IMG/VR virus record: IMGVR_UViG_3300032782_000001
Span: 1-52,403 of that record
DNA length: 52,403 bases
Direction: 5' to 3' (one strand)
Source of the DNA: a virus
A program made the position numbers and the translations under genes. The notes beneath the pieces were generated by a model. The model was not told the origin of the DNA and did no database searches. It saw only the letters and a list, made by a program, of their open reading frames with translations. How positions within the stretch are numbered: position 1 is the first letter of the stretch; each line of letters starts with the position of its first letter. Below are positions 5,438 through 52,403 of this stretch, in pieces.

Positions 5438-5638
5438 CTAACTCTTCATGACTTCAAGGATGATTTTCTCTTCGCAAGGGACCCACTCCGGAACGGGTCC
5501 AGTACCTTGGACTGGCACGTGGAGATTCCAAGGAGGCTTCCTGGAAGACCAGTGGACTCCTCCGCATTTGGAACACCTCCATTTTAGAGCTCCTTCGGGT
5601 TCTTCCTGGACCCAGACGTGCCCCGAATGTCTTCCCAT
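5438..5638 (-). CDS. small Cys-rich protein, tail ...ILEVMKS (V-[MH]-x-S tail family)
   Basis: ORF track. Confidence 0.5.
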   Translation of the reverse strand: MGRHSGHVWVQEEPEGALKWRCSKCGGVHWSSRKPPWNLHVPVQGTGPVPEWVPCEEKIILEVMKS

Positions 5639-5654
5639 AAGCTAAAACGTAAAT

Positions 5655-5692
5655 TCGAACCGGTCAGACGTATCCGGAATCAACAAACATAA
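5655..5692 (+). promoter_or_regulatory. orphan plus-orientation copy of the cassette boxes (CGTAAATTCG..GACGTATCCGG) without SD
   Basis: read directly; followed by G-rich degenerate repeats (GGAAGTTCCGG-like) antisense to the minus ORF 5716..6276. Confidence 0.35.
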
Positions 5693-5715
5693 ATGTACCG
5701 GAAGACGGGATCATT

Positions 5716-6276
5716 TCAACGAACGTCCGGTATTTCGGGGGGTTTGGAAGTTCCGGGTGATTGGGAGTTGGAGGTCCGGAAGTTCGGGGATTTGGAAGTT
5801 TCGGGAGGTTGGGGATGTTCCGTCGGCTCGTCGGGGTATGGGGCTGGTTCAGGCGTCGATTTCGGTCTTTGCCTCCAGCTCCTCCCAGTCTTCTGGCATG
5901 TGATCACCAGGTTTTGAAAATCCCGTTGTTTTCTCGGGATGGTCGGTGGCAGTCTTGCGGGTGTCCGGCGGCTCATTGGTTCTTGAGGGAGTATGATGGG
6001 TGTTTGGTACCTGTCTGTTCCCGGCATTTCAGTCTTTGGATCCTGCATGGCTGGCATTCCGTCTCTTGGGACGAAGCCCTTGTAGCCCAAGTCATGTTCT
6101 CTTGAGTCTGGCCCTGGAACGGGTCCTTCTTGCGTTCCGTTGCCCCTTCCTTCGTCTCGAACCAGTCTGACGGTCCTCTTGGGCCCTAGAACCTCCCCGA
6201 CGCCACGGAAAAACCGCTCCCTTTCGCGGGCGCCCGCGCAGGTGTGCCATATATTGGCCGAACTCCTGTCATACAT
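5716..6276 (-). CDS. hypothetical protein with Pro/Ser-rich low-complexity C-terminus
   Basis: ORF track; no SD or cassette; competing plus ORF 5693..5917. Confidence 0.3.
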   Translation of the reverse strand: MYDRSSANIWHTCAGARERERFFRGVGEVLGPKRTVRLVRDEGRGNGTQEGPVPGPDSREHDLGYKGFVPRDGMPAMQDPKTEMPGTDRYQTPIILPQEPMSRRTPARLPPTIPRKQRDFQNLVITCQKTGRSWRQRPKSTPEPAPYPDEPTEHPQPPETSKSPNFRTSNSQSPGTSKPPEIPDVR

Positions 6277-6432
6277 TTTCCTACATAATGAACAGGGATT
6301 CTGTTTTATGGTCTGTCGGGTCTATGTTAAGGCGTGTGGCCCTAGGGGTGTTGTTTTGAAATTTCCTTGTTGGACCGCCAAACTGGATTCCAACTTGTTA
6401 AAGGTGATCTTCCCCCTAGTCACCTTTCATTC

Positions 6433-6693
6433 TCAGCTCGACATGATGTTCCATACGACGAATTCGTTGAAGGAGATTTCACGGATGTCGGGTGGAAGAA
6501 TGGTTCCGTCGTCCATTCTTTTGTAGGTTTTGGAGACTCGTTGCCATTCTTCGGCGCAGGTTGGGCAGCAGCTGAAGGTGTTTTTGGTGGTCAGGCCTTG
6601 GAAGTAGACGGAGGTTGGGTTGGGGCAGGGTCCTTTGAAGGACAGGCAGGATTCTGGGTCCCAGGCGAAGTCTTTGGGGTTTCGGACGGTCAT
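6433..6693 (-). CDS. Cys-rich small protein, tail ...NEFVVWNIMSS (tail family)
   Basis: ORF track; ATGA overlap with upstream gene. Confidence 0.55.
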   Translation of the reverse strand: MTVRNPKDFAWDPESCLSFKGPCPNPTSVYFQGLTTKNTFSCCPTCAEEWQRVSKTYKRMDDGTILPPDIREISFNEFVVWNIMSS

Positions 6694-6947
6694 GCGTCCA
6701 TCACTTGGGCGACGAGGAATTCTGCTTCTGAGAGTTCTTCCACTTTAACCCATTGGCCAAGGAATTTCAGATATCGCGGTTTATCGGCGTGGGGGCTGAG
6801 GAATTGGAGTTTTCCGTGGGTGGGGCATCGGGCGAAGGTTCGGATGGTTCGTCCGAACAATGTACCTCGGAAGAATTTTGTGGCGGGTTCGCCGCATTCT
6901 TTTTCCGGGTCTAGCGGGTTTTCTGCGTAGTCGCAGGAGTTCTTCAC
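6690..6947 (-). CDS. Cys-rich small protein, tail ...EAEFLVAQVMDA (tail family)
   Basis: ORF track; GTGA overlap with upstream gene. Confidence 0.55.
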   Translation of the reverse strand: MKNSCDYAENPLDPEKECGEPATKFFRGTLFGRTIRTFARCPTHGKLQFLSPHADKPRYLKFLGQWVKVEELSEAEFLVAQVMDA

Positions 6948-7159
6948 GAGTCCATCACCTGTCGGCAGATGAATTCTTCTCGGGAGATTTCAATCGGCTC
7001 CATCGGAGCCCCGCGGATTTCCATCGGAAGCAGTCCGTTTAGGCAACATTGGTTACAAGTTCCCCATACGAACATTTTTCCTTCTTGGCGTTCGTACTGG
7101 AAGAATCGAGAGGCTTCGTTCTGGCAGTCGTCTATGCAGGGGATGGGTTCCGTTTTCAC
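6944..7159 (-). CDS. Cys-rich small protein, tail ...REEFICRQVMDS (tail family)
   Basis: ORF track. Confidence 0.55.
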   Translation of the reverse strand: MKTEPIPCIDDCQNEASRFFQYERQEGKMFVWGTCNQCCLNGLLPMEIRGAPMEPIEISREEFICRQVMDS

Positions 7160-7932
7160 GAGTCCATCACTTGGGCGACCAGGTACTCTTCCAGGGAGAT
7201 TTCCTGGATGTCATGTCCTGAATCTCGGGCGTGGTATCCGCATCGGGCCACGTTCAGGCGGGCGATCCTTCCTGAGAATTCGAATTCATCTCGGAAGAAT
7301 CGGACGGCCGGGTTTTGGCATTGTCCGGGGTCCAGTTTTTCCCAGTCGCATGGAATTCGGGGGTTTTCCGCGTCCCAGAGTTTTTGAAGCCTCTCCATTT
7401 CTTTCTGGAGGAGTGCTTGTCCGTCGAGTCCGTAGATCTGGTTGTCGAATTCGATGATTTTTTTCCGGTGTTCGGAGGGTCGGCTTGGGAGGCCCAGCGG
7501 GTTGACCATGAGCCAGTGCAGTTCTTTCGGAATCCGGTTTCCGGGGGAGGTGTCCAGGATGACCGGTTGTGGTCCTTCTCCGTCTTTCGGGTCTCCGTAT
7601 TCTTGACCGTCGTAGACGACCACGGGGAATGCGCCTTGGAGGTTGGGGAAGTGTGGGGAGTATTGGAAGATGTCAATTCGTCCGCATTGGAGCGCCATCC
7701 ATCGGCAGATGGTCCAGATGTATTCCCTTTCCAGGGAGCTACAGTTGTAGTCGAAGCCGATCCTGCACGGTCCGTCGTCGTAGGATAGGCTTTCGTTCGT
7801 CGGCAGTCCGTCTTCCAGTGGACCTCGGTAGTAGACTGGTTGGTCTGCCGGTTTTCCCAGGAGTTCGGGGAATTTCCGCAGGTTCTTTTCCAGGAAGGCG
7901 AGCATTCGCTTTTTGGCGATTTCGCTAGCCAT
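7156..7932 (-). CDS. hypothetical protein (258 aa), tail ...LEEYLVAQVMDS (tail family)
   Basis: ORF track 7156..7956 trimmed to Met9. Confidence 0.55.
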   Translation of the reverse strand: MASEIAKKRMLAFLEKNLRKFPELLGKPADQPVYYRGPLEDGLPTNESLSYDDGPCRIGFDYNCSSLEREYIWTICRWMALQCGRIDIFQYSPHFPNLQGAFPVVVYDGQEYGDPKDGEGPQPVILDTSPGNRIPKELHWLMVNPLGLPSRPSEHRKKIIEFDNQIYGLDGQALLQKEMERLQKLWDAENPRIPCDWEKLDPGQCQNPAVRFFRDEFEFSGRIARLNVARCGYHARDSGHDIQEISLEEYLVAQVMDS

Positions 7933-7959
7933 TGGCGCAGTAATGCTGTAGCCCACCGT

Positions 7960-8163
7960 TTAGCTCTCCATGACTTGTCGGACGACGAATTCTTCCAGGG
8001 TAACAAGTTTAGATTCCCATCCCTGGATGGAGTGAACTCGACATCTTGAAATGAATAGACGGGATGCTTTGAAGTAGTAGAAGTAAATGGATCTTTTACC
8101 GCACCTCGGTTCCTCGACAAGCCGGTCGGCTCCAGCATCGCACGGAATGAATTCGTCTCTCAT
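7960..8163 (-). CDS. Cys-rich small protein, tail ...LEEFVVRQVMES (tail family)
   Basis: ORF track 7960..8457 trimmed to Met99, which forms an ATGA overlap with the upstream stop; the track N-terminus is junk-like. Confidence 0.5.
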   Translation of the reverse strand: MRDEFIPCDAGADRLVEEPRCGKRSIYFYYFKASRLFISRCRVHSIQGWESKLVTLEEFVVRQVMES

Positions 8164-8348
8164 GATTCCATGACTTGTCGGATGACGAATTCTTCTCGTG
8201 AAATTTCTTTCGTATATTTTTCTCGCCGGCAGGTCGGGCAGTGTGAAGCGCAGCGTCCTTTCAATTTCCGGAATTTGGAGATTTGGAAGAATCGGATAGC
8301 TGGCAGTCCGCAGACGTATCCCGGTTGTGTGTAGTCGCAGGTGATCAC
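8160..8348 (-). CDS. Cys-rich small protein, tail ...REEFVIRQVMES (tail family)
   Basis: ORF track 8160..8753 trimmed to the GTG that overlaps the stop of 8345..8650 (GTGA). Confidence 0.5.
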   Translation of the reverse strand: MITCDYTQPGYVCGLPAIRFFQISKFRKLKGRCASHCPTCRREKYTKEISREEFVIRQVMES

Positions 8349-8650: not shown

Positions 8651-8698
8651 CGTCGCCTCCAGATCGCAATACGTCTCGACCTTTCGGATTTCCGTCGA

Positions 8699-8947
8699 TC
8701 AGGAATCCATGACTTCGTGGATTACAAATTCTTCCAGGGTCACCTCGGTCCATCCGCTAACGCCATGTTCATCACATCTGGCGTTGCAGCCCGATCGGAA
8801 GACGTAAAACCTCGTCGCGTCTCGTCCGCACGTCTTATTCACGAGCCACGGATAAGACGTGCGGACGAGACGCGACGAGGTTTTACGTCTTCCGCACGTC
8901 TTATCCGTGGCTCGTGAATAGTGGTCACAAGGGATGAGCCTTGTCAC
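8699..8947 (-). CDS. Cys-rich protein, tail ...LEEFVIHEVMDS (tail family), carrying an in-frame palindromic insertion
   Basis: ORF track 8699..9409 trimmed to the GTG that overlaps the stop of 8944..9291; CDS contains the nested inverted repeat 8801-8917. Confidence 0.45.
   Translation of the reverse strand: MTRLIPCDHYSRATDKTCGRRKTSSRLVRTSYPWLVNKTCGRDATRFYVFRSGCNARCDEHGVSGWTEVTLEEFVIHEVMDS
8801..8917. repeat. nested inverted repeat: 38-bp perfect arms (8801-8838 / 8852-8889) around a 13-nt spacer, then a second copy of the arm end plus the inverted spacer (8892-8917)
   Basis: read directly: GACGTAAAACCTCGTCGCGTCTCGTCCGCACGTCTTAT-TCACGAGCCACGG-ATAAGACGTGCGGACGAGACGCGACGAGGTTTTACGTC-TT-CCGCACGTCTTAT-CCGTGGCTCGTGA. 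Confidence 0.75.
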
Positions 8948-9291
8948 TCCTGGTTGTACGGGTCCACTCGACATTCCAGCCTCGTCCACACGTCTTGGAA
9001 CCAGGTTTCCATCTTCTCGACCGAATCTCCCTCCCTCAACGATCGGGAGATGTCGAAAAAGTCGTCTTGGTTCCTTCGATAGAACCGGGCTTCGGCAGAG
9101 AAGGCGGTGTCTCCGCCGTAAGGCCGATGATCCCACCAATACACGTGAATGCAGTACAACTTCTTGACGTAGGTCGTGTCTTGGTCGAGGAAACTTCCTC
9201 GGATCCATTTGGACCACAAGCCGTCCGCCTTGTGAGGCTTGGATTCCCGGTACCCGGCTTTTTCGAGATCTGCTTCGGTGATCATCGTCAA
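8944..9291 (-). CDS. hypothetical protein (115 aa)
   Basis: ORF track; overlaps upstream gene stop. Confidence 0.6.
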   Translation of the reverse strand: MTMITEADLEKAGYRESKPHKADGLWSKWIRGSFLDQDTTYVKKLYCIHVYWWDHRPYGGDTAFSAEARFYRRNQDDFFDISRSLREGDSVEKMETWFQDVWTRLECRVDPYNQE

Positions 9292-9950
9292 ACCTCCACC
9301 ACTTGATATCCGATCTCGCGCGGTTGCCTTTCCTCGTCCAGATAAGCTGAATTGCAGAACTCCATCTCTTGGATGGTTTGGCGACCGAATCCGCCGTGCA
9401 CGTGTCCACTGAGCACGGCTTTCACTCGATGATCCGACTCGTAGAACAGGAAGTTGTACAGGTGAATGTTCCCCCTTTGCAGATCCAGGATCATGCTGGG
9501 CGGACAGTGGGCGAGCAACACGTCCGCCATTTTCAGCTCATCTTGGATCCAACGGAACTCTTGCCACATGTCTTGTGACCGACGTTCCCAGTTCCACTCC
9601 CCTTGAAGGTACGGGATGAAAGGGATCCCGTAGAACGTTCGGTCTTCCCACGTGATCAACTTCTTCGTCACGTTGACGGCGCGGATCCCGCCGGCTTTCA
9701 ACAGATCCTCGACGCGTTCCGGTTCCAGAAAGTCGTGATTTCCCGCCACGAACAGGAACGGCCGGTCTCCAAGCCATTCCTTCAATTTCTTCATCCTCCT
9801 CCGGAGCCAGTCCTCTTGGAACTTGGGCTCGACGGACCAGTCTCCACGCGTCTCGTTCGGCATGAAATCCCCCGAATGGACGACAGGCGCATCCAAATCC
9901 GGCAAATCCGGGAGCCTCCCATGCGTGTCAGAAACGTGGATGAGTTTCAT
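9288..9950 (-). CDS. calcineurin-like metallophosphoesterase
   Basis: motifs IHVSDTHG (DxH), GDF, GNHD, GHVH; ORF track trimmed to Met5 after GGTGAG RBS. Confidence 0.8.
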   Translation of the reverse strand: MKLIHVSDTHGRLPDLPDLDAPVVHSGDFMPNETRGDWSVEPKFQEDWLRRRMKKLKEWLGDRPFLFVAGNHDFLEPERVEDLLKAGGIRAVNVTKKLITWEDRTFYGIPFIPYLQGEWNWERRSQDMWQEFRWIQDELKMADVLLAHCPPSMILDLQRGNIHLYNFLFYESDHRVKAVLSGHVHGGFGRQTIQEMEFCNSAYLDEERQPREIGYQVVEV

Positions 9951-10000
9951 CTCACCAACCAATACGGCTCGACCCGTCGAATTTACGCCGACATCACTTC
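9951..10000 (-). promoter_or_regulatory. conserved upstream cassette
   Basis: minus reading GGCGTAAATTCGACGGGTCGAGCCGTATTGGTTGGTGAG-ATG; its TAA doubles as the stop codon of 9983..10237. Confidence 0.5.
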
Positions 10001-10237
10001 CCAGACGAGGAATTCTTCTTCAGTTATCCGGATCCATTTGTCTCCCAGGAACCCTGGTTTAAATCTGAGTGAATACTGATGTAGATTGCAAACAGCTGCG
10101 GCCCGATTCCCCGTAGGGCTCAATAGGAAGAAGTGTCTTGCAGGCCCGTTCGGCATCGACCCTTCTTCGCGTCTCTGCGCTTCGCACATCTCGCATTTTC
10201 GGACGCCACTTGTAAAATCTTCCATGTCGTCTGACAA
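9983..10237 (-). CDS. Cys-rich small protein, tail ...EEEFLVWEVMSA (tail family)
   Basis: ORF track. Confidence 0.55.
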   Translation of the reverse strand: MSDDMEDFTSGVRKCEMCEAQRREEGSMPNGPARHFFLLSPTGNRAAAVCNLHQYSLRFKPGFLGDKWIRITEEEFLVWEVMSA

Positions 10238-12520: not shown

Positions 12521-12709
12521 TCAGGCCGACATCACTTCGTACACGAGCCACGAGTTTCTCTCTTCGGGGGACATGGACTGAATAACTTCATCCAAGTTTG
12601 CCTGAAGCCTTTGCCGAAAGACTTCACGTTTCTCTTCGGACCTGGTGTCGTTCGTCAGCACATCTTGCAGTTGAGCGCTGATCCAGAACGCATCTTGAAC
12701 TTTGCTCAT
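12521..12709 (-). CDS. small protein, tail ...SWLVYEVMSA (tail family)
   Basis: ORF track; ATGA overlap. Confidence 0.5.
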   Translation of the reverse strand: MSKVQDAFWISAQLQDVLTNDTRSEEKREVFRQRLQANLDEVIQSMSPEERNSWLVYEVMSA

Positions 12710-13029
12710 GATGCATGGACCGCCAAGATGGTCATCTGACGCTTCACACGTTCTTTGATTTCCTCGAGGGGTCCGAAGAAGATGCGAAACCCGACGCCAT
12801 CCTTCGTGTACCAGATCTCACGACCATTGGCCTCTTGGGCGATGTTCATCCCGATCTGGATGTACTCGTGGGGCTCCAAATCCTGCCCCACATAATCGAA
12901 ATCCGTGAGTCCACCCTCGGTGAAATCCCCATTATCCAACGGGAAGATCTCGGCGTCGTTCTCTCGAGCGACAATGAACTCGGCGACAAGCGCCTGGAGT
13001 TCCTCATCCTCCTTGAATTTCAGCTCCAT
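12706..13029 (-). CDS. hypothetical protein (107 aa)
   Basis: ORF track 12706..13182 trimmed to Met52 after GGAGGATGGCTC. Confidence 0.55.
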   Translation of the reverse strand: MELKFKEDEELQALVAEFIVARENDAEIFPLDNGDFTEGGLTDFDYVGQDLEPHEYIQIGMNIAQEANGREIWYTKDGVGFRIFFGPLEEIKERVKRQMTILAVHAS

Positions 13030-13277: not shown

Positions 13278-13841
13278 TCACGCCTCCATCACGTCGAACA
13301 CATAACATAACTGAAGGGCTTTTTCCTTGGAAATTTCCTCGAATTTCTTGACCTCTTTGGCAAGTATGCAGACTTCACAAAGTCCAAATGGAGGTTCTCC
13401 CTGGAAGAACTTCTTAGCCGGCTTCCGCTCGGCGGTTTTCCCGAGGTCTCTACCTTTGGAATCGTATTTTGAATGCATGTTCCTGCAAAACATCAGCATC
13501 CCGGAAGGAGGAAGTGGAGTTGATGATAAGAAGGCTTCTTGTTCGGGTAGTCCTGTGAGGTCGGATTTATTTATCGCTCCCGCTCCAAGCGCTCTTACCT
13601 GGTCGAGGACGTGCATGACCGATTGGTACTTGGTGAGACGCAGATCCTGAATGATTTCTGTACTGAGACCACTTTTGAGTAGCCTTTGAACCGAGCCCAC
13701 AGGCACGTGTTCCATCATGGAGCACACTTGCACATAACGCTCCGTGGCGTACCGCTTGTAGCCCTTTTCGTAAAGCCCTTTCGCCTCCAGCATGGCTTGA
13801 CGAATTTTGTCCATCAAAGCATTCAACGATATGTCGTCCAT
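13278..13841 (-). CDS. hypothetical protein (187 aa), tail ...LCYVFDVMEA (tail family)
   Basis: ORF track; stop lies inside the downstream gene's cassette. Confidence 0.6.
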   Translation of the reverse strand: MDDISLNALMDKIRQAMLEAKGLYEKGYKRYATERYVQVCSMMEHVPVGSVQRLLKSGLSTEIIQDLRLTKYQSVMHVLDQVRALGAGAINKSDLTGLPEQEAFLSSTPLPPSGMLMFCRNMHSKYDSKGRDLGKTAERKPAKKFFQGEPPFGLCEVCILAKEVKKFEEISKEKALQLCYVFDVMEA

Positions 13842-13849: not shown

Positions 13850-14170
13850 CTAGCTATACATGACCGTCCAGACAGTCCACTCTTCGTCCGAAAGCTTGCG
13901 GATTTTCCCATGGAAGATGGTGTCTTCTCCCATAAAGCCCTTGTTCATGCACGACTTGCAGACGAGGAACATGGTGGCCCGGATCTTATCCAGCTTATCC
14001 AGACTCCCTACATTGGAATGCTGTTGAAGGTATTCTTCGGCGAAGACGAAAGCTGCAATGGGCTTCCCTGACTGAGTCCCCATGTGATTGGAACATGATG
14101 GGTCGCAGCAACGACCAGCTGTACCCCTCTTGGCCCTGGCCAGAAGCACCATCAGCTCTCGGTCGTTCAT
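13850..14170 (-). CDS. Cys-rich protein (106 aa), tail ...EEWTVWTVMYS (tail family)
   Basis: ORF track trimmed to Met10 after GGGAG. Confidence 0.5.
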   Translation of the reverse strand: MNDRELMVLLARAKRGTAGRCCDPSCSNHMGTQSGKPIAAFVFAEEYLQQHSNVGSLDKLDKIRATMFLVCKSCMNKGFMGEDTIFHGKIRKLSDEEWTVWTVMYS

Positions 14171-14372: not shown

Positions 14373-14787
14373 CTATGCGACTTGCACCTGCTGGACAATC
14401 CTCTTAGCGAGGTATACGTTGCATTCCGCGATGAAGGCATCGTTGATGGCGTAATATCGATTGTCGAGATCATCGGTATCCTCACCAGACACCGCGTCCG
14501 GGTCGAATTTCATCGCCAGTTGGACGAGCCGCAGAACTTTCGCGGACAGGTCCGTGTTCATCTGATTCAGGGCGAACTTCAGGAACGGAAACCCGACGTC
14601 GTAGCGGTTGCCGAGCCACTGGGAGAAGCCCCCCGTTTTGAACCTGATGGTTCAATTGCCCGAGAACGGCGGCGTCCCTTTGCAGAGGCTCGAGACTCAT
14701 GAGGAAGGTCTCCGTCGACCAATCACTGTGGTCTCGCCACAGGTCGTATGCCTCGTTCATGAGCCTCTGGTGCACGGAATCCGGCAT
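14373..14787 (-). pseudogene. single gene split into two ORFs by a +1 frameshift at a C6/G6 homopolymer (14637-14642)
   Basis: ORFs 14482..14787 and 14373..14561 read sensibly only when joined (...LNHQVQNGG / TGGFSQWLGNRYDVGFPFLKFALNQMNTDL...); run of six G on the coding strand at the junction. Confidence 0.5.
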
Positions 14788-20846: not shown

Positions 20847-20888
20847 CGTCGTCACCTCCGCGATTGAATACGACGCCGACTGCTGAAT

Positions 20889-25360: not shown

Positions 25361-25414
25361 AGGACTTCTGGAGGCTCGTCCTCGCCATCGTCCGTTCGAA
25401 GGTGTCATGGAAGC

Positions 25415-42627: not shown

Positions 42628-42852
42628 ATGCCATTCGAAAATATGGAGATGTGGCGTTCTCGCATGAAGTGCTGCTTCACGCTTTGTCCCCGAGATGCTT
42701 GTCTGGTCTTTCATGACTCAAATCATGAGTGGCCTATGTGCAAAGAGCACGAGGAAGAAGGAGAAAAGGACCTGAAAGCTCAATTTGAGGACAATCCTAT
42801 TCAGGTTATTTCCGGTCCTGAATTTCTTGTTTGGGAAGTCATGGAGTCATGA
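42628..42852 (+). CDS. Cys-rich small protein, tail ...PEFLVWEVMES (tail family)
   Basis: ORF track. Confidence 0.55.
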   Translation: MPFENMEMWRSRMKCCFTLCPRDACLVFHDSNHEWPMCKEHEEEGEKDLKAQFEDNPIQVISGPEFLVWEVMES

Positions 42853-42853: not shown

Positions 42854-43063
42854 GTGAAATGCGGATTCGGAACCGAGAAGGACCCGGAATTCTCTTGCCC
42901 AAAAGCAGCCACTGTCGGGTTGCAATCTCGAACGCATAGAAATCACATTTTTATTCGTTGCAAAGAGCACTCCCTGGAACTTATCCTTCGGGGATTGTAC
43001 GACGTCATCGACCTGGAAGATGCCGAAAATTTCACTGTCGTCTATGAGATCATGAAGTCCTGA
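42854..43063 (+). CDS. Cys-rich small protein (GTG start), tail ...FTVVYEIMKS (tail family)
   Basis: ORF track 42785 trimmed to the GTG just after the upstream stop. Confidence 0.45.
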   Translation: MKCGFGTEKDPEFSCPKAATVGLQSRTHRNHIFIRCKEHSLELILRGLYDVIDLEDAENFTVVYEIMKS

Positions 43064-43139: not shown

Positions 43140-44084
43140 GTGCGCGATCTATCGAGGCTCAGGTATTTGCTTAGGTGGGCCCAACTCAATAAGACCTTCG
43201 AAAGGGTCCCGGCCAGTGGAATCCATGTTCCGCTTCGCGACAGTGTGACCCGGTATCAAATCCCAGTGGCCGGGGCCGAATTCCGTCGTGTGAACAATCC
43301 GCACGGGAATCCCGTCGCCAAGCTCCTCGTGGGCTCTCAGGAGATCCAGATCGGAGCCGAGGGATTGGACGACGCCGAGAAGCTGGAAATTGCCCTGGAA
43401 ACTCTCTTCCAGGAGAGGCCGCCAGTGTGGGAATCTCCAGATCTTTCGGACGCCATTCAGCAGGCGTTGTCCCACGCTCGACGAGATGACGTCAAATCCC
43501 GTTTCAATAAGGTCGTCACCGGTCCCATGGACACCGATGAATATACCCATTGGATGAATTTCACCCTTGGTTTGGCTGAGGGGGAGTGTTCGAAAGAATC
43601 TCGAACGGAAATGGTCCTGGGCCATTACATCACCACGACTTATATCTTCAAAGGAACGGAAGCTCAAGCCATTTCCAGCTTGGAAGGACTCCGCGACGTC
43701 AAGCGAATGCCGACTCCGCGTCGTGTGCTCGTCAAAATGGTGCATCTCCGGATGTCGAAGATGCGCAAGGAAGTGGAAGAAGAGAACAATCGTCGGAGGA
43801 AGCAAAGGGCCGAAGACGCATTGCAAGCCAGCCTTCCTCCCAATGATCCGAACAAGCAGAAGAATTACCACCCTAGTGGTAAACCCGACGTCATTATTGG
43901 AGATCTGGATAACCGCGCCAATTGCAAGATGTCAGCATCCAAAGCCAACTATGACGCTGGGTACTGGACCATCCGGCGGGAAGCTGAAAACCTGATGAAA
44001 TGTCTGCAGCGAGAAGACATTGACGATAGCATTATTCACGATGCTTGGAAATTGTATCTCGTCGGCGATGTGATGCAATCATAA
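43140..44084 (+). CDS. hypothetical protein (about 314 aa), tail ...LVGDVMQS (tail family)
   Basis: ORF track; cassette at 43085-43139; start GTG ambiguous (43134 or 43140). Confidence 0.6.
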   Translation: MRDLSRLRYLLRWAQLNKTFERVPASGIHVPLRDSVTRYQIPVAGAEFRRVNNPHGNPVAKLLVGSQEIQIGAEGLDDAEKLEIALETLFQERPPVWESPDLSDAIQQALSHARRDDVKSRFNKVVTGPMDTDEYTHWMNFTLGLAEGECSKESRTEMVLGHYITTTYIFKGTEAQAISSLEGLRDVKRMPTPRRVLVKMVHLRMSKMRKEVEEENNRRRKQRAEDALQASLPPNDPNKQKNYHPSGKPDVIIGDLDNRANCKMSASKANYDAGYWTIRREAENLMKCLQREDIDDSIIHDAWKLYLVGDVMQS

Positions 44085-44128: not shown

Positions 44129-44581
44129 ATGTACGGGAGTGGCTCTTCCAATGAGCAGATGAATACGTTGCTGGCCGAGCGCATCTTCAAGTGGTTGCTC
44201 GACCGTGGTGATTTCATTGAATGGCTGGACCGCCAGCTCATGGACCAAGGATTGGAACTCTTCGCTCAATTGGACTCTCTCACCGCCATGGATGTTGGCC
44301 GAGTCCTTCTCGGCATGCCCGAATGGATTAAAACGAGGTACCGGACCGTTGGAGGTGGTGGCTCCGACGTCCCAACTTTCTTCACGGAGCGCGTGAAGGA
44401 AGAAGTGGCGAAAGATTCCTTCCTCGAGTCATGTGTTGGTAAGTCCGTCCCTGTGACCGCCGCCTGTTTGTCGATGGTCGGTGAGGCTGTCAAACGGACG
44501 AGGTTCTACACGGAGAATGCAACCGAGATGCGACGTCGGATCCGCCATACTAAGGTTGTCCGCCACGTCATGGACTCATGA
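44129..44581 (+). CDS. hypothetical protein (150 aa), tail ...KVVRHVMDS (tail family)
   Basis: ORF track 44045 trimmed to Met29 after TGGAGAAATT. Confidence 0.55.
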   Translation: MYGSGSSNEQMNTLLAERIFKWLLDRGDFIEWLDRQLMDQGLELFAQLDSLTAMDVGRVLLGMPEWIKTRYRTVGGGGSDVPTFFTERVKEEVAKDSFLESCVGKSVPVTAACLSMVGEAVKRTRFYTENATEMRRRIRHTKVVRHVMDS

Positions 44582-45016: not shown

Positions 45017-46285
45017 GTGTCCGATCTCATCGAAGGTCAGATCCAATACGTCCAAGGGAGTGGGAAGAAGCCTTATGAGCTCCAGCTCAAAGGCGGCGTC
45101 TACAGCTGCTCTTGCATGGCTTGGCGCAACCAGAGCATCCCCATCAACAAGAGGACGTGCAAGCATCTCAAAATGGTGCGCGGAGACGCCGCCGAACAAG
45201 TGCGCGTCTCCGGAACTTTCCATCAAGCCGGCGTCACGTCGGGCCGCATTCAAACGGCAGTTCCCAACCAGACCAAGCCGCCACGCACCGACCCTGATTA
45301 TGAATTCACGCCGCAAGAAGACGGCCGCATCCCGATCATGACGTCGGACGAGTACGTGGCGGCGCAGCGACAGGCATTGACCCTTCTTGCAGAAGGGTCC
45401 TTTCGGGACAAGGAGTCCGTTCTCGCAGACGCCGAGCTGAAGGCCGGTCGCAAGCTTCGCCCCGACGAGAAGACCAAGCTCTTCGGGCCGCCCGTGCTCC
45501 TCGCGCATCCGTTCGAGGACGCCGAGGGCGTGGACCCGACGGGCTGGTGGATGTCCGAGAAGCTGGATGGGGTGCGCGCTTACTGGGACGGCAAGCAGTT
45601 CCTCTCGCGCCAGGGCAATGTCTTCCACGCGCCAGATTGGTTCAAGGCGGGTCTGCCGGACCATCCGCTCGATGGCGAACTCTGGACGGACCGTCGATCC
45701 TTCCAGCAGACCATCAGCATCGTCAAGTCGATTGATGCGGGTGAGAGGTGGAAGGCCATCAAGTACATGGTCTTCGATCTCCCGCACCTGACCACGCATT
45801 TCGAGCACCGGTACGAGCAGCTCGACAATCTCATGCTCGCCTCCACGAGCAAAGTGCTCAAGATGGTACAGCAGCGCTCATGCACGAGTCTGAACGACCT
45901 CAAGCAGGAACTCGAAAGGGTCGTCAAGCTTGGAGCCGAAGGGCTCATGATCCGCAAGCCCAAAAGCATGTACGAAGCGGGCCGAAGTTGGTCCATCCTG
46001 AAGGTGAAGCCATGGCGTGATTCCGAAGCCACCGTCGTTGGCTATGAGGCCGGAAAGGGTCGTCACAAGGGCAGGACGGGCGGGCTTATCGTCCGGCTCG
46101 ATGTCCCCTTCACCGACCCTCGTCTGAAGCGCGGCGCTGAATTCAATATCGGCACGGGCCTCTCGGACGAAGACCGCCGCAACCCTCCGGCCATTGGGAA
46201 GGTAGTCACGTTCCGCTACATGGACACCACCGATGCGGGGGTCCCGAAGGGCGCCAGCTTCGTCTCAGTGCGGGATTACGAATGA
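45017..46285 (+). CDS. ATP-dependent DNA ligase with N-terminal SWIM-type zinc finger
   Basis: SWIM-like CSCMAWRNQ...CKHL; ligase motif I EKLDGVRAY, motif III LDGELW, motif V EGLMIRKP..ILKVK; GGAGGTGACAC-GTG; cassette at 44955-45016. Confidence 0.8.
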   Translation: MSDLIEGQIQYVQGSGKKPYELQLKGGVYSCSCMAWRNQSIPINKRTCKHLKMVRGDAAEQVRVSGTFHQAGVTSGRIQTAVPNQTKPPRTDPDYEFTPQEDGRIPIMTSDEYVAAQRQALTLLAEGSFRDKESVLADAELKAGRKLRPDEKTKLFGPPVLLAHPFEDAEGVDPTGWWMSEKLDGVRAYWDGKQFLSRQGNVFHAPDWFKAGLPDHPLDGELWTDRRSFQQTISIVKSIDAGERWKAIKYMVFDLPHLTTHFEHRYEQLDNLMLASTSKVLKMVQQRSCTSLNDLKQELERVVKLGAEGLMIRKPKSMYEAGRSWSILKVKPWRDSEATVVGYEAGKGRHKGRTGGLIVRLDVPFTDPRLKRGAEFNIGTGLSDEDRRNPPAIGKVVTFRYMDTTDAGVPKGASFVSVRDYE

Positions 46286-46512
46286 CTATGGGCAGTCAAA
46301 AAGCCCCTACCGTGAAATCGACTATTAGGTCCTCTCCACGAGGAGGGAATCAGAACAAGACCAGCACGTTCGTCAACGAACCGGCTGTGGAGATCACCTT
46401 GGCGAATTACCGGCATTCTCAGGTGCTATCCATCAAACAGGCGGAAGTTCTCGCCAAGAAACTCATGAAACTCGTCAACGAACACAAGGTCCGGGAGGTC
46501 ATGGAATCATGA
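46282..46512 (+). CDS. hypothetical protein (76 aa), tail ...HKVREVMES (tail family)
   Basis: ORF track; ATGA overlap. Confidence 0.5.
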   Translation: MTMGSQKAPTVKSTIRSSPRGGNQNKTSTFVNEPAVEITLANYRHSQVLSIKQAEVLAKKLMKLVNEHKVREVMES

Positions 46513-46664: not shown

Positions 46665-46897
46665 AAGCGATTGCTCCCGAGAGCCTCACGGAGTCTCTCA
46701 ACGAGATCATCTCTACATGCATTCACGGACCTGGAGGTGACCCTGACCGTTGCCATATGAGGGCCGCCGCTAAAGCATTCGTCCTCCTGCGGCGCATGGG
46801 ACTCCCCATCCATGGGGAGGAGGATTATGAAGATCAGCTGAGGAAGTGCAATGCCTCGGAAGTTGACTTCCTGGCAGAAGAAGGGCTCCCCGAATGA
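46661..46897 (+). CDS. hypothetical protein (78 aa)
   Basis: ORF track 46586 trimmed to Met26 (ATGA overlap). Confidence 0.5.
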   Translation: MKAIAPESLTESLNEIISTCIHGPGGDPDRCHMRAAAKAFVLLRRMGLPIHGEEDYEDQLRKCNASEVDFLAEEGLPE

Positions 46898-47328
46898 AAT
46901 TCTTCGTTCCTGCCTGCGGAGATCGCATCATCCTCATGAAGCCATGGACCTTCCCTCTCTATCTGGAGAAGCGGAACATGCAATTCGCCAAAGTCCGCGG
47001 CTTGGTGGACGCCAAGGCGGATAATTGGATGGGCGTCAGGGAAGGTGATCGTTGGACTGGCAAGTACAAATCTGTAAGCATCACGCTCGGAGCCGGCACG
47101 ATCATCGAGTGTGATCGCATTTATATCCGCACTTTCAACAAGTCCCGGATCCATCTGGAAGAGGATTACGACAGCATTACCTGGAAAGTGACTAATAACG
47201 GGAAAGCCGTTCGACATGGTCGTTTCTGGGTGAAACTCCCAGATTGCTACAATATTGAATTCGAGCTCCAGGTAGACTCTCTCTATCGAGATCGGGTCAA
47301 GGTTGTCAAGGAGGTTATGGAATCGTGA
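46894..47328 (+). CDS. hypothetical protein (144 aa), tail ...VKVVKEVMES (tail family)
   Basis: ORF track. Confidence 0.55.
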   Translation: MKFFVPACGDRIILMKPWTFPLYLEKRNMQFAKVRGLVDAKADNWMGVREGDRWTGKYKSVSITLGAGTIIECDRIYIRTFNKSRIHLEEDYDSITWKVTNNGKAVRHGRFWVKLPDCYNIEFELQVDSLYRDRVKVVKEVMES

Positions 47329-47603: not shown

Positions 47604-47830
47604 TCAAAGGCAGCCAAATCAATACCGCGTCTCAAGTCGCCCGAGATCTGGAAGAGATCAAGATGAAGATCCGTGATCTCCAGAAGAAACTCGGTTCTGC
47701 GCAGTTGAACGACGACGCGTCGAAGCTTGGCGGTCTTGCCGAGCACTGTTGGGAAATTTCTCATGGTCTCGAACGCAAGGCTCTTGAATCGTTCTTGGCA
47801 GCTCGTCGTGGAGAGGAGCTGCCGCAATGA
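47600..47830 (+). CDS. hypothetical protein (76 aa)
   Basis: ORF track; ATGA overlap. Confidence 0.5.
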   Translation: MIKGSQINTASQVARDLEEIKMKIRDLQKKLGSAQLNDDASKLGGLAEHCWEISHGLERKALESFLAARRGEELPQ

Positions 47831-48009
47831 CCAGGAGCCGTCTAGATGATGCTAATGCCTCAAGGCAACGAATGAGTGATGCTGCCAAGAAGGCATTTCT
47901 CGCACGCTTCCGGAAAGAGTGTGTTCGAGGTCTCCGAGGTGGAGTGACCTCAGAAGAGCTGCAACAAGCTCTCGACATGGCCCTTGTCCAAGACGTCCAC
48001 GAATCATGA
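47827..48009 (+). CDS. small basic protein, tail ...LVQDVHES (tail family, His variant)
   Basis: ORF track. Confidence 0.5.
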   Translation: MTRSRLDDANASRQRMSDAAKKAFLARFRKECVRGLRGGVTSEELQQALDMALVQDVHES

Positions 48010-48242
48010 GCGATTCCGATAATGTCCACTACGTCTATCGACTGGAGGATGTGTATTATTCAGATCGGATCTTTCATCCTGAGATTCTCGTAGAGAGGAA
48101 GGACGGTCTTTACGTCTACAATGGTGACACCTGCATCCAATCCCACTTCTTGGCTGAACTCTGCGGTCGAGATCTGACTTGCCGAGAAGCCAACATAATG
48201 AAATCTCGACTCCAACAGGTTGCTGACGTTCAGGATGCCTGA
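48006..48242 (+). CDS. hypothetical protein (78 aa)
   Basis: ORF track 47919 trimmed to Met30 (ATGA overlap). Confidence 0.5.
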   Translation: MSDSDNVHYVYRLEDVYYSDRIFHPEILVERKDGLYVYNGDTCIQSHFLAELCGRDLTCREANIMKSRLQQVADVQDA

Positions 48243-48326: not shown

Positions 48327-48557
48327 ATGTCGAATTCCAAAAAATCTCACCCATTTTACGTCGCTCGGAGAGCGTACATATATGAGCCAGGGAAACGCTC
48401 TCTACCTGAATATCTCGTAATTCATACCTCTCAGGAATATTGCATCGGGTGTTTCACGCGATCAGGTTATGAAATTGTCAGCGTGAAGCTCGGAATGCGA
48501 CACGCAAAAAGATTAGCTGGCAAGCTAAACGACGTTCGGAAAATCATGGATTCCTGA
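48327..48557 (+). CDS. small protein, tail ...NDVRKIMDS (tail family), AT-rich
   Basis: ORF track; AT-rich leader with TGTCATA direct repeats. Confidence 0.5.
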   Translation: MSNSKKSHPFYVARRAYIYEPGKRSLPEYLVIHTSQEYCIGCFTRSGYEIVSVKLGMRHAKRLAGKLNDVRKIMDS

Positions 48558-50448: not shown

Positions 50449-50733
50449 AAGAATACTTTTAGCAATATTTGTTCCATATTGGTGAATTCATTCTAACGGT
50501 TAAGTGTGCCAACCTGTATCAGGTTGAATATGACTAATAATAATGTATATCATGATTCTTCCAAGAACACTCGTTCCGACCGATGGAAATTCTGGTGTCA
50601 GCAGGGTACCGATTTTAGGAACAGACCTCAGGAATCCTGGTAGGTTACGCTAAATGGCACCTCTCCGAGGTACTATTTAATAGCCCCGGTTCTTGAGAAG
50701 GTCCGGCTTTTTAGGATCGGGGCTGTTAAATAC

Positions 50734-51120
50734 ATGTCGGACTGTCCCAAAGACTTGGTGTTTCCGTTCCATTATGAGAGCGGTGGAATTTCTTGGCACT
50801 TGGAACGGCCCCTCCGTGAAGGTGGTCGGTTTTCAACATCGGTCAACGGGATAACATCTGAATTCTGGCTGACGGGATCTGAACGTTGGTCCGGCCGACG
50901 CCGGATTCTTCCTGGTTTAATCCGTCGTTTTGTTCGAAAATGCCGGAAACTTCGGCCTGGTCACATATGGTCAGTCCAGTCTCTAGATTTCGGGACTTGG
51001 GGAGTCTCGTGTGTCCATTGTGGACTCAATCAACATTGGGTTCCAAGATTCCGTGATGTCCCTGATCTCGGTACCCTGAATTGCAGAATGCGTCAGGTAT
51101 CTCAAGTGATGGAGAGTTGA
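50734..51120 (+). CDS. Cys-containing protein (128 aa), tail ...RMRQVSQVMES (tail family)
   Basis: ORF track. Confidence 0.5.
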   Translation: MSDCPKDLVFPFHYESGGISWHLERPLREGGRFSTSVNGITSEFWLTGSERWSGRRRILPGLIRRFVRKCRKLRPGHIWSVQSLDFGTWGVSCVHCGLNQHWVPRFRDVPDLGTLNCRMRQVSQVMES

Positions 51121-51130
51121 CGGAGGGCTA

Positions 51131-51415
51131 ATGACCTCTGTAATCGGAATCGAACAAGTTATTGCTTGCCTCTGTCAAAGGAAAATTTCTTTGGTCGATG
51201 AAATTCATCAGCGGGACGAAGCCGATATGGCTCTGGCGGATCTCTTCGGGGGATCCGAAATCATGTTGGACCTTTCTAAAGAATTCCGATCAGATGGTGC
51301 CTGGTTGATTGTCACCTGGTGGTTAGAAACTGAAATGGAACAATCTCAATTTGAGGTTCCTGTGGAAATGCTTTGTCCTGGAAACGAATCTGTTTTGATT
51401 GTTATGCTTTCTTAA
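51131..51415 (+). CDS. acidic hypothetical protein (94 aa)
   Basis: ORF track; ACGGAGGGCTA-ATG. Confidence 0.55.
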   Translation: MTSVIGIEQVIACLCQRKISLVDEIHQRDEADMALADLFGGSEIMLDLSKEFRSDGAWLIVTWWLETEMEQSQFEVPVEMLCPGNESVLIVMLS

Positions 51416-51496
51416 ATATATGGCATATATTAAAACGACCCTTCTGCCATATATTCACGGTATGCCACATATTTAAACGATCCCTGCCATGCGTCC

Positions 51497-51925
51497 ATGC
51501 GATTTCAGTTCTTGAGCGTAAGATCTGACGTGGGGCAATATCGTATTGACCCGTCTCTCTTACCGGATTTGAGTGAGTTTGATACTACTAAGCCCGAACT
51601 TCAAACCCCTGCTCTTCCATCAGAGCACGTTTCGATCGTCTCAGACGGTATATTAGGTGAAGAATTCGGTGGTTGTTGGACGGTCGTTGACCGAGGGGAG
51701 CGGAGACCTCCAGGACAAAAACGATATGGGGTTGTGTCGTTTGATCATCAGCCGGCTAGGGTAATCATTCGCCCAGATCCATGGCGAGCAAAGAACGGAG
51801 CCAAGATCACTGTCGATCCCTCATCTCCTCCTGTTATTCTTTCTGAAGGAGGCCCTATGACGTATGAAGAAGCGTGCGAATCTGCTCGCCGCATGAATGA
51901 GATTTTGGAAGTTCACGAGTCTTAA
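51497..51925 (+). CDS. hypothetical protein (142 aa), tail ...NEILEVHES (tail family, His variant)
   Basis: ORF track; preceded by degenerate TGCCAT repeats at 51420-51490. Confidence 0.5.
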   Translation: MRFQFLSVRSDVGQYRIDPSLLPDLSEFDTTKPELQTPALPSEHVSIVSDGILGEEFGGCWTVVDRGERRPPGQKRYGVVSFDHQPARVIIRPDPWRAKNGAKITVDPSSPPVILSEGGPMTYEEACESARRMNEILEVHES

Positions 51926-52134
51926 TGCAATTTGAACGCTTCTGTACTCATTATTCCACTAATGACGCCCGGGCTCCTTGCGGTTCTCTAGCGATTTGGG
52001 CTTATGTGAATATGGATGCACCACACCCTTTACGAACTGTCAGTTTCCGCTGTGGTCTACATCTTGTGGATAATACGTTTTTCAGAAAACTTTCCATGGA
52101 AGAATGGCTGATTTTGGAAGTCCACGAATCCTGA
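51925..52134 (+). CDS. Cys-rich small protein, tail ...EEWLILEVHES (tail family)
   Basis: ORF track; TAATG overlap. Confidence 0.5.
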   Translation: MQFERFCTHYSTNDARAPCGSLAIWAYVNMDAPHPLRTVSFRCGLHLVDNTFFRKLSMEEWLILEVHES

Positions 52135-52400
52135 TGGGCCGATATAACCTTCGCAGCTTTTCTCCGGACGTTCCTGCTTGCTGCGGGGCTCCAGATGACG
52201 ATCCTTGCGGAGAACCATCTTCCGCATTCTTTATTCAAGAAGTTCCTTTAAGGAGTTTTTCTCCTAGGACCACTGCATGGTTCGGTGTATGCGCCGTTTG
52301 TTCATTCAAATGGCGACGCCTGATCGAGAATGAGAAAAAGCTTCGAATTAAAGAAATTTCCTACGAAGAATATATTGTCTACGAGGTCATGGCGTCATGA
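52134..52400 (+). CDS. Cys-rich small protein, tail ...EEYIVYEVMAS (tail family)
   Basis: ORF track 52104 trimmed to Met11 (TGATG overlap); the next gene begins with an ATGA at 52397. Confidence 0.5.
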   Translation: MGRYNLRSFSPDVPACCGAPDDDPCGEPSSAFFIQEVPLRSFSPRTTAWFGVCAVCSFKWRRLIENEKKLRIKEISYEEYIVYEVMAS

Positions 52401-52403
52401 AAT

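Follow-up and report, generated by a model that had tools for sequence, protein, structure and literature searches.

Why should about half of the proteins predicted from one stretch of viral DNA end in the same few residues? This question is raised by the IMG/VR virus record IMGVR_UViG_3300032782_000001, of which positions 1 to 52,403, a stretch of 52,403 nucleotides (hereafter the window), were analysed. The original prediction, made from the letters of the window, held that roughly half of its predicted proteins share one C-terminal peptide, here called the tail. This was borne out by our analysis, in which 59 open reading frames (ORFs) were found to carry the tail, including every gene that had been given as an example. 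The tail is conserved at the level of the protein and may be a C-terminal sorting or cargo-loading signal, a reading that we tentatively place first among those weighed below. The proteins of the window match a phage contig of 436,316 bp (JGI, ENA, Logan SRR8881007), and the sequence covered here comprises about 62–64 kb of this 436-kb genome together with scattered loci of its relatives.

Definition and Frequency of the Tail

The consensus of the tail is hydrophobic(-8)-[VI](-7)-x-x-[VI](-4)-[MHQ](-3)-[ED](-2)-[SA](-1)-COOH, or V-x-x-V-M-E-S in a short form covering the seven residues before the stop, and it corresponds to the final two turns of a C-terminal helix of about 12 residues (an example of the last 14 residues is REEFVIRQVMES). 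Among the 59 tails, V or I occupies position -7 in 55 and position -4 in 58; position -3 is M in 49, H in 7, and Q in 3; position -2 is E in 30 and D in 12; and position -1 is S in 48 and A in 10. The invariant core is therefore V/I(-7), V/I(-4), M/H/Q(-3), and S/A(-1). The consensus as first proposed stood in its V/I, M/H, and S/A core, but its restriction of position -2 to E or D held for only 42 of the 59 tails. Exactly two residues follow position -3 in every tail, with the register fixed to the carboxyl end.

A six-frame translation of the whole window gave 567 ORFs of at least 35 amino acids, of which 38 terminate in [VIL][MH][ED][SA] and 59 in a relaxed form of the tail ([VI][MHQ]x[SAC] or M[ED]S). 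When genes were modelled by simple codon bias, about 124 were obtained for the window, and the 59 tailed ORFs represent about 48% of them. The tetrapeptide [VI][MH][ED]S was found 34 times at a C-terminus, where about 0.045 occurrences are expected by chance in the window, versus 4 times internally among 50,596 residues, and the heptapeptide [VI]xx[VI][MH][ED]S was found 32 times at a C-terminus and once internally. As a control, tail-less phage loci of about 1 Mb (10,430 ORFs) yielded no strict and 7 loose matches, corresponding to a false-positive rate of 0.07% per ORF for the loose regular expression. Public Logan contigs of the same phage, with independent gene calls, have the same stops for most of the tail ORFs, which for most of them argues against mis-called stops, a possible artefact named at the outset. 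The tail ORFs of the window are listed below with coordinates, strand, last eight residues, and description.

5438..5638, minus, IILEVMKS, zinc-ribbon-like tail ORF; uncalled in the Logan annotation
5815..6105, plus, LVAQVMFS, tail ORF
6433..6693, minus, VVWNIMSS, zinc ribbon and tail
6690..6947, minus, LVAQVMDA, zinc ribbon and tail
6944..7159, minus, ICRQVMDS, zinc ribbon and tail
7156..7956, minus, LVAQVMDS, 266 amino acids, C-terminal zinc ribbon and tail
7960..8163, minus, VVRQVMES, zinc ribbon and tail (P0013), 67 amino acids, structure modelled
8160..8348, minus, VIRQVMES, zinc ribbon and tail; absent from the public gene call
8699..9409, minus, VIHEVMDS, zinc ribbon and tail; start uncertain, longest ORF
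9983..10156, minus, LVWEVMSA, zinc ribbon and tail (P0003), 57 amino acids
11296..11514, minus, IVHEVMMS, zinc ribbon and tail
12521..12709, minus, LVYEVMSA, tail ORF
12706..13029, minus, TILAVHAS, tail ORF
13278..13841, minus, YVFDVMEA, tail ORF
13850..14170, minus, TVWTVMYS, tail ORF
14373..14561, minus, IVQQVQVA, degenerate or doubtful tail
19225..19428, minus, IVVDTMES, tail ORF; start uncertain
19425..19628, minus, LVFLVMES, zinc ribbon and tail (P0002)
19625..20038, minus, LVRGVMES, tail ORF; orthologue in the 393-kb phage (27% identity) ends in KVRKVMES
20103..20291, minus, LIYEVMES, zinc ribbon and tail
20301..20846, minus, PVREVHES, tail ORF
23132..23731, plus, TVAFVMDC, degenerate tail; orthologue ends are RVSSVMNS, AVADVQIS, and QVAEVTLS
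24175..24801, plus, CVADVMEA, tail ORF
24803..25360, plus, QVAEVMDS, tail ORF
25290..25418, plus, PFEGVMEA, doubtful ORF of 42 amino acids; overlaps the preceding gene, uncalled
25415..25597, plus, LVYEVMTS, zinc ribbon and tail (P0005)
25594..25794, plus, IVLSVMES, zinc ribbon and tail
27155..27379, plus, VVLAVMDS, zinc-ribbon-like and tail
29579..29833, plus, VVHEIMDS, zinc ribbon and tail
31445..31741, plus, PVKYVMES, tail ORF
31744..32070, plus, VIQSVMES, tail ORF
34016..34318, plus, VVEQVMVA, tail ORF
34369..34809, plus, TVASVMES, tail ORF
34811..35245, plus, TILEVMES, tail ORF
35295..36020, plus, HVAMVMDS, tail ORF, 241 amino acids; orthologue in the 193-kb phage ends in KIHQVMTS
36017..36310, plus, IVEEVQES, tail ORF
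36312..36599, plus, EVERVMTA, tail ORF
37410..37661, minus, VVQEVMES, zinc ribbon and tail (P0007)
37666..37935, minus, LVREVMES, zinc ribbon and tail (P0009)
37973..38443, minus, KCRDVHES, tail ORF; paralogue of 38445..38927
38445..38927, minus, RVRQVMES, tail ORF; paralogue of 37973..38443
40056..40745, minus, LTEVVMSS, tail ORF, 229 amino acids
40893..41723, plus, KVQSVMES, tail ORF, 276 amino acids
42094..42480, plus, IVESVHES, tail ORF
42628..42852, plus, LVWEVMES, zinc ribbon and tail; public call starts at 42736
42854..43063, plus, VVYEIMKS, zinc ribbon and tail
43140..44084, plus, LVGDVMQS, largest tail protein, 314 amino acids; a weak relative in the 377-kb phage ends in SVKVVMTA
44129..44581, plus, VVRHVMDS, tail ORF
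46282..46512, plus, KVREVMES, tail ORF
46894..47328, plus, YRDRVKVVKEVMES, clade-conserved SH3-like protein with an appended helix
47325..47603, plus, IVLEVMES, zinc ribbon and tail (P0001)
47827..48009, plus, LVQDVHES, tail ORF
48006..48242, plus, QVADVQDA, tail ORF
48327..48557, plus, DVRKIMDS, tail ORF; family A-x-x-L-N-x-V-x-x-[VI]-M
50734..51120, plus, QVSQVMES, tail ORF
51131..51415, plus, SVLIVMLS, tail ORF
51497..51925, plus, EILEVHES, tail ORF
51925..52134, plus, LILEVHES, zinc ribbon and tail (P0006)
52104..52400, plus, IVYEVMAS, zinc ribbon and tail

One or two entries are doubtful, namely 25290-25418, an uncalled ORF lying partly over its neighbour, and 14373-14561, which ends in QVQVA; the starts of several small tail ORFs are uncertain. 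The public gene call omits or reframes 8160-8348 (-), 25594-25794 (+), 27155-27379 (+), 29579-29833 (+), and 5438-5638 (-), and such small tailed ORFs suggest that gene finding in the phage clade described below could make use of the tail. The leftmost tail lies at 5438, and positions 1-5437 of the window and 1-1748 of locus L089, like the DNA farther left, hold small genes without tails, indicating that the tail region is sharply bounded on its left side near 5438. In GC content the tail-less end of the window stands at 0.58–0.63 versus about 0.53. Beyond the right end of the window the array continues over the next 10 kb, where nearly every gene is tailed and about 23 further tail ORFs were found.

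Conservation of the Peptide Rather than the Nucleotide Sequence

The tail codons carry 1–1.9 bits of information at positions 1 and 2 and 0.05–0.4 bits at position 3, and the synonymous codons for V, E, and D are used in the tail as they are in the gene bodies. Serine in the tail is encoded by AGY in 7 of 48 cases and otherwise by TCN, the stops of the tail ORFs comprise 44 TGA, 8 TAA, and 7 TAG, and the identical peptide was found in related phages with GC contents spanning 0.38–0.67. Four-nucleotide overlaps were no commoner after tail genes (8 of 44) than after other genes (9 of 63), so that no link between the tail and translational coupling to the downstream gene was seen. Taken together, these data support the earlier proposal that selection acts on the peptide and not on a coupling cassette.

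The same data bear on explanations at the nucleotide level, according to which the conserved element would be a Shine-Dalgarno sequence combined with an ATGA overlap as a coupling cassette, an RNA-processing or RNA-binding site, a recombination site, or an artefact of gene calling or recoding. TCA is indeed over-used for the terminal Ser (16 observed versus 3.8 expected), which yields ATGA overlaps and is the sole trace of coupling in the DNA of the tail, GAGGT appears where position -5 is Glu, and the tail arrays hold many tightly packed genes. However, the three-base periodicity with a free wobble position, the occurrence of both AGY and TCN for Ser, of CAY for His, and of I-for-V swaps, the use of all three stops, the unremarkable frequency of overlaps, the agreement of independent gene calls on the stops, and the retention of the peptide rather than the DNA across that range of GC contents all argue against such an element. 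The nucleotide-level explanation is effectively refuted, and the chance that it holds after all is in our judgement negligible; the tail is conserved at the protein level.

Protein Families Carrying the Tail

The tailed proteins are small (about 40–316 amino acids), soluble, and mostly orphans, and those of the window have a median isoelectric point of 6.5, with a transmembrane-like segment in none of the 59. The one short terminal peptide ends unrelated bodies in the 59 ORFs of the window and in 212 distinct tail ORFs in the loci of the clade. The early description of the N-terminal parts as unrelated fits the many orphan bodies, but about 25 of the tail ORFs in the window depart from it, having in common a Cys-rich zinc-ribbon domain of about 60 amino acids, the end of which is the tail helix. 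A scan of 20 tail proteins against Pfam and PHROGs gave no match, a Pfam scan of 100 tailed proteins from the clade loci gave nothing besides ankyrin repeats (Ank), and a profile of the final 20 residues gave no match to PDB sequences. The 314-amino-acid protein at 43140-44084 matched only itself among 5.8 billion proteins. One of 100 tailed proteins showed a weak match (E = 1e-4) to PHROG 2522, "major head protein"; this protein is not among the ten largest members from outside the window.

The zinc-ribbon family has the consensus C..C.xxAxxF[FY]...RCxxH...E-I-[ST]-x-E-E-[FY]-[LIV]-V-x-[EQ]-V-M-[ED]-S. A profile of the family, run against 1.84 billion cluster representatives (clusters at 50% identity, from public metagenomes), matched at least 420 at E <= 1e-3, and in all but one of the 150 matches listed the domain reaches to within about 2 residues of the last residue. 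AlphaFold2 models were judged by their confidence values and secondary structure. The model of the protein at 7960-8163 (predicted local distance difference test score, pLDDT, of 88) has three strands, after which residues 56-66 of the 67 form a C-terminal helix. The family is covered by no model in Pfam or PHROGs and showed no structural neighbour in the PDB or BFVD, and this small domain with its zinc ribbon and C-terminal helix is undescribed.

The tail also ends other folds. The protein at 46894-47328 (144 amino acids) is conserved in the clade and has 148 homologues, nearly all of which terminate in YRDRVKxVKxVMES or near variants with V/I-[MHQL]-x-x tails (VMES in 33, VHES in 8, VMET in 7, VHDL in 6, and others); in its model (pLDDT 87), residues 131-143 form a helix set apart from the SH3/Tudor-like barrel that precedes it. 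Ankyrin repeats (Pfam Ank, E = 8e-41) make up five paralogues of the 377-kb phage IMGVR_UViG_3300036987_000310, each of which continues into a helical linker (...FNLKK.V..FATKEQ.EQAK) and then VQKVM[SGN][AT]. The five paralogues lie at the following positions of locus L148.

L148 2404-2877, tailed ankyrin-repeat paralogue
L148 3797-4483, tailed ankyrin-repeat paralogue
L148 14110-14751, tailed ankyrin-repeat paralogue
L148 14761-15132, tailed ankyrin-repeat paralogue
L148 15142-15603, tailed ankyrin-repeat paralogue

Upstream of position -8, several sub-families have signatures of their own (A..LN.V..VMES, CDE..V..VMES, and EISxEEF). The second of these, in the form [ST]-C-D-E-x-x-V-x-x-[VI]-[MH]-E-S, marks another family of small proteins containing Cys, found in the 393- and 445-kb phages, with further loci in L095 and L154 and the following examples.

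L003 5062-5283, ORF with the CDE signature
L003 12652-12849, ORF with the CDE signature

Distribution of the Tail and Behaviour of Orthologues

When IMG/VR was scanned with degenerate patterns for tail-coding DNA, only a handful of tail-rich contigs came up, most of them large (427, 393, 377, 363, 240, 193, 133, and 63 kb), to which metagenome and ENA contigs added further tail-rich phages, including one on a 445-kb contig found in many samples. The tail trait defines an uncultured clade of phages of about 130–445 kb. No member of the clade was found in the GenBank phage collection, which contained only the distant, tail-less XaC1 and LR745206.1; a megablast search of GenBank phages with 12 kb gave no match, and LR745208.1, the ligase of which is 43% identical, has zero tails across 41 kb. 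Two contigs of the clade, DATBQC010000625.1 and JBAZJM010000002.1, were binned in metagenome-assembled genomes labelled Methylobacter sp. and Lentisphaeria bacterium, labels that are either a hint of the host or the result of mis-binning.

Within the clade, orthologues at 26–57% identity retain the tail, and four tailed families beyond that of 19625-20038 retain tail-like ends in other phages. Likewise, untagged proteins stay untagged across the clade (ligase, BRCT, DUF2201, DUF6011, the 41789 family, and the 49030 family), in a comparison spanning phages with ligases 43–52% identical. Outside the clade, the SH3-like homologue gp167 of Xanthomonas phage XaC1 stops before the helix, at FWVKLHDFNTIICDVI, and 0 of 72 neighbouring coding sequences are tailed; the homologue in the 635-kb LR745206.1 has an unrelated continuation, with 0 of 148 ORFs of the locus tailed; and in the loci L283, L289, and L152, all with zero tails, the homologue ends differently. 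By a crude orthologue detection that missed many loci, a tail on the orthologue co-occurred with a tail-rich neighbourhood (7/0 versus 1/5, p = 0.005). The comparison of related genomes, on which the original prediction had made its claim depend, thus showed orthologues keeping the tail within the clade and, outside it, the domain without the helix in genomes that lack tails entirely. This matches what a tail appended as a tag would predict.

Further, the tail differs between genomes in a consistent manner. M occupies position -3 in 87% of the tails of the 436-kb genome and in 100% of those of the 427-kb genome, in which 56% also have I at position -4, as compared with 43% in the 377-kb genome, where position -1 is mostly A, T, or G, and 8% in the 363-kb genome, where H or Q makes up the other 92% (Fisher p = 1e-7 versus the 436-kb genome). 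Beside a conserved orthologue with M, the neighbouring tails had an M fraction of 0.83, as against 0.35 beside one with H or Q; the statistics on these dialects and on co-occurrence come from few genomes and a loose regular expression. As a change from M to H requires three nucleotide changes, the dialects suggest a concerted, selected drift of many ligands, for which a single receptor with a pocket differing between phages would be the simplest cause. Given this drift of the consensus in concert within each genome, and the exact register with the carboxyl end, it is quite likely that the C-termini of all tailed proteins are read by a single receptor, which co-evolves with the phage. The phage itself probably encodes this receptor; otherwise it would be linked to the lineage of the host.

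These observations can be set against the simplest structural account of the tail, namely that the helix packs in cis on its own domain or on other tailed proteins as an oligomerisation element, and that its recurrence reflects common descent or repeated exchange of 3' ends among paralogues. The high pLDDT of the helix in both models suits this account, as do the 25 or so ORFs of the window that are true paralogues with the helix as part of the domain, and the likeness of several sub-families beyond the last 7 residues (EISxEEF..., A..LN.V..., and CDE..V...). However, the last 7 residues are shared by proteins whose folds are unrelated (zinc ribbon, SH3-like barrel, ankyrin repeats, and helical proteins), the SH3-like domain does without the helix in tail-less phages, neither the carboxyl-end register nor the genome-wide switch from M to H or Q is needed for packing in cis, and the randomised synonymous sites exclude a recent exchange. 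We therefore regard this account as improbable, and rank it fourth and last among the readings of function, after sorting, an adaptor handle, and a C-degron, in that order.

Untagged Genes and Genomic Setting

Several untagged genes of the window match known phage families, namely an AAA_5 ATPase (PHROG 1297), a DUF2201 VWA-metallopeptidase (PHROG 1314), an ATP-dependent DNA ligase, a Metallophos protein, a BRCT protein, a ParB-like HTH protein, and DUF6011; the ligase is nearest to ligases of huge uncultured phages. Recognisable enzymes were never found tailed, in the window or in its relatives: this holds for the ligase, the AAA_5 ATPase, the DUF2201 VWA-peptidase, the Metallophos phosphoesterase, adenylosuccinate lyase, and the LAGLIDADG, GIY-YIG, and HNH endonucleases, and also for BRCT proteins. 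A Pfam search with 10 further untagged neighbours gave no match, and hence no PDZ, TPR, or Clp-like candidate for a reader in the window. No capsid-like match to Pfam or PHROGs was seen among the window proteins scanned.

Two enzyme genes lie inside the tail-rich region.

25892-27001, plus, AAA_5 (MoxR-like) ATPase
29900-31387, plus, DUF2201_N/DUF2201 protein (metallopeptidase and VWA)

The synteny of this pair is kept in tail-rich regions of relatives, with homologues in L154, L097, and L222. Homologues of the DUF2201 VWA-protein, often mis-annotated as HNH endonuclease, were also found in 129 ordinary phage records without any sign of tails. The suggestion that the MoxR-like ATPase or the VWA/HExxH protein is the receptor of the tail thus received no specific support, the families being common in ordinary phages.

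A promoter-like intergenic cassette was found in the window, consisting of [CG][GT]AAAT[TC]C, N9-14, CGTA[TC][TC], N4-12, and GGAGG[TC]G, with the start codon 3-5 nucleotides on; GTAAATTC alone occurs 10 times versus 1.03 expected. The cassettes are located as follows.

23087-23127, plus, promoter-like cassette
34324-34363, plus, promoter-like cassette
35251-35290, plus, promoter-like cassette
44973-45012, plus, promoter-like cassette
21168-21207, minus, promoter-like cassette
20853-20892, minus, promoter-like cassette
13236-13275, minus, promoter-like cassette
10730-10769, minus, promoter-like cassette
8654-8693, minus, promoter-like cassette
124-163, minus, promoter-like cassette

The cassette stands upstream of both tail-gene operons and the untagged ligase, and is probably the mark of transcription units that are specific to the phage and have a strong Shine-Dalgarno sequence. 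A tRNA-Leu gene (anticodon TAA) was detected by ARAGORN and Rfam amid the tail genes at 11591-11667 (-).

Possible Function of the Tail

When a strict terminal motif recurs on more than 100 unrelated proteins within a single proteome, it nearly always serves as a signal for sorting or translocation, as do signal peptides, PTS1, the C-terminal domains of the type IX secretion system, RxLR, PEXEL, and Dot/Icm signals. The tail is a motif of this type, and the capsid-targeting sequence (CTS) of phage T4 and the cargo peptides of encapsulins offer precedents; on these grounds a sorting or cargo-loading signal is ranked first, as a possibility to be held with due reserve. The tail would gather the accessory, effector-type repertoire of the phage at one destination, of which the most concrete would be the interior of the procapsid, from which the tailed proteins would be co-injected; an alternative destination would be another phage-built structure within the cell. 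Loading of the procapsid would make the tail a functional analogue of the T4 CTS and of the encapsulin cargo-loading peptides. The carriers are small, fast-evolving binders (zinc ribbons, ankyrin repeats, and an SH3-like barrel), enzymes of DNA and nucleotide metabolism are never tailed, and the lack of transmembrane-like segments speaks for sorting. It may be, then, that this phage lineage runs a proteome-wide sorting system of its own, with a PTS1-like label, a phage-encoded receptor, and the capsid lumen or an intracellular compartment as its target, although we would put this no higher than a tentative proposal. A signal for import into a phage nucleus was also considered and, by analogy, set aside, as it is precisely the DNA enzymes in need of such import (ligase, BRCT, and the ParB-like HTH protein) that are untagged.

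Several observations weigh against a sorting signal. The receptor was not found, no structural gene was seen in the approximately 62 kb of the genome or in the related loci read, and no protease site lies beside the tail. The number of tailed species (59 in the window and about 23 in the next 10 kb, with 212 distinct ones overall) exceeds any known virion proteome, which implies few copies of each per particle, and the isoelectric points of the tailed proteins are not basic, unlike those of the T4 internal proteins. The promoter-like element is common to the tail operons and the untagged ligase and so marks no separate temporal class. Moreover, both models give the helix a high confidence, so that it may be packed in cis and not be free for docking, and the combination of a variable binder with a constant C-terminal element suits an adaptor handle equally well.

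Such a handle would let diversified binders grip host or defence proteins while the constant helix docks all of them onto one hub enzyme, such as an AAA+ protease of the host or the phage or a modifying enzyme. The five tailed ankyrin-repeat paralogues of the 377-kb phage, the helix at the extreme C-terminus throughout the zinc-ribbon family with its at least 420 clusters, the hypervariable orphan N-terminal parts joined to a constant tail, and the exact C-terminal register are all in line with this idea; the genome dialects are compatible with a co-evolving hub, and genes for an AAA_5 ATPase and a VWA/metallopeptidase protein lie within the tail-rich region here and in relatives. However, that pair is not clade-specific, as the ordinary phage records with VWA homologues indicate, and Pfam detected no F-box, PRANC, or other known hub-binding domain. 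The element, at 7-12 residues, is much shorter than known hub-binding boxes, it differs from the known ClpX-tethering peptide in being acidic at -2, and more than 100 competitors at one docking site would dilute each other. An adaptor handle is conceivable but somewhat doubtful, and comes second to sorting.

The tail might also be a C-degron that flags early accessory proteins, through the free C-terminus, for a protease, so that they act transiently. Its exact register, small last residue, and hydrophobic residues at -3 and -4 recall the logic of ssrA-type tags, it sits on accessory-type proteins only and never on enzymes, the number of substrates of a protease is unlimited, and a protein with a metallopeptidase domain and an AAA+ ATPase are encoded nearby. 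On the other hand, the acidic -2 and polar -1 residues are the opposite of the non-polar, LAA-like degrons of bacteria, and ssrA-DD variants are stable; among natural degrons, none is known to occur as a strict motif across half a proteome; the tail ends a confidently predicted helix rather than a disordered segment; and tailed and untagged genes gave no sign of different temporal classes. We consider a degron unlikely.

Sorting, loading, or docking by the tail would have several consequences. The tail would split the dark matter of huge phages into tailed accessory or effector genes and untagged housekeeping genes, a classification reaching hundreds of orphan genes without database annotation, and would predict a single receptor that could be found by co-variation, with the M and the H/Q genomes as a built-in specificity switch. 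It would provide a portable tag of 7-12 residues for steering proteins to a destination and, if the reading is true, give viruses of bacteria their first defined linear sorting signal and cargo receptor. The question bears on the organisation and delivery, in large phages, of the numerous small proteins that serve host takeover and counter defence.

Comparison with Known Systems

In the way it works the tail resembles terminal recognition signals, a kind of element already known, but its motif, carriers, scale, and clade are undescribed in Pfam, PHROGs, PDB sequences, and the literature, where a search for such a phage motif found no description. The systems most like it were compared feature by feature.

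Among signals that serve membrane translocation in cells, the Dot/Icm (E-block), RxLR, and PEXEL motifs resemble the tail in that hundreds of unrelated, rapidly evolving proteins present a short terminal motif to one machine; the Dot/Icm signal is moreover C-terminal and Glu-rich, with hydrophobic residues at -3/-4, and PTS1 (SKL-COOH) is in exact register with the C-terminus. All of these differ from the tail in motif, and no machinery for secretion or import could be identified for the tail. The ssrA tag is likewise read at the free C-terminus and has a small last residue and a hydrophobic -3; in contrast, it is a non-polar YALAA added by tmRNA and is inactivated by an acidic -2, whereas the tail is genomically encoded, helical, and acidic.

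The poxvirus ankyrin/PRANC (F-box-like) proteins and SspB combine a variable binding module with a constant C-terminal element, by which many paralogues are docked onto one hub; the tailed proteins show the same build of variable module and constant end. However, PRANC is a domain of about 40-50 amino acids that binds Skp1, and no homologous domain was detected in the tailed proteins, and the ClpX-binding peptide of SspB is basic and hydrophobic (LRVVK).

In encapsulins, C-terminal cargo-loading peptides are described as binding HK97-fold shells (PMC7355545). Like the tail, they are short C-terminal peptides on unrelated proteins, and they dock their cargo at the shell's inner face. They are, however, extended and rich in Gly, Ser, and Leu (LTVGSLRR), not strictly registered with the carboxyl end, and found on one to few cargos, with the shell gene adjacent, whereas the consensus of the tail is the helical V-x-x-V-M-E-S and no shell gene was seen near the tails. 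C-terminal capsid-targeting tails also occur on HK97-type proteases and scaffolds.

We know of no phage precedent other than the T4 CTS, carried by the internal proteins IPI-III and Alt, for diverse small defence proteins with just a terminal peptide conserved. This short peptide is the sole common part of unrelated, fast-evolving small accessory and anti-defence proteins, and serves as an address label (PMC3012670, PMC5694885). The two peptides have a similar acidic and hydrophobic flavour (QEFIAE in the CTS and EEF[LIV]VxEVMES in the tail). The CTS, however, is N-terminal, 10-20 residues long, and cut by the prohead protease after Glu ((L/I)xE), whereas the tail is C-terminal, and no common upstream cleavage motif was found in the tail proteins outside the zinc-ribbon family; further, the CTS occurs on about a dozen proteins at most, and the tail on about half of the genes. 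Each known system compared here thus resembles the tail in part and departs from it in at least one testable defining feature.

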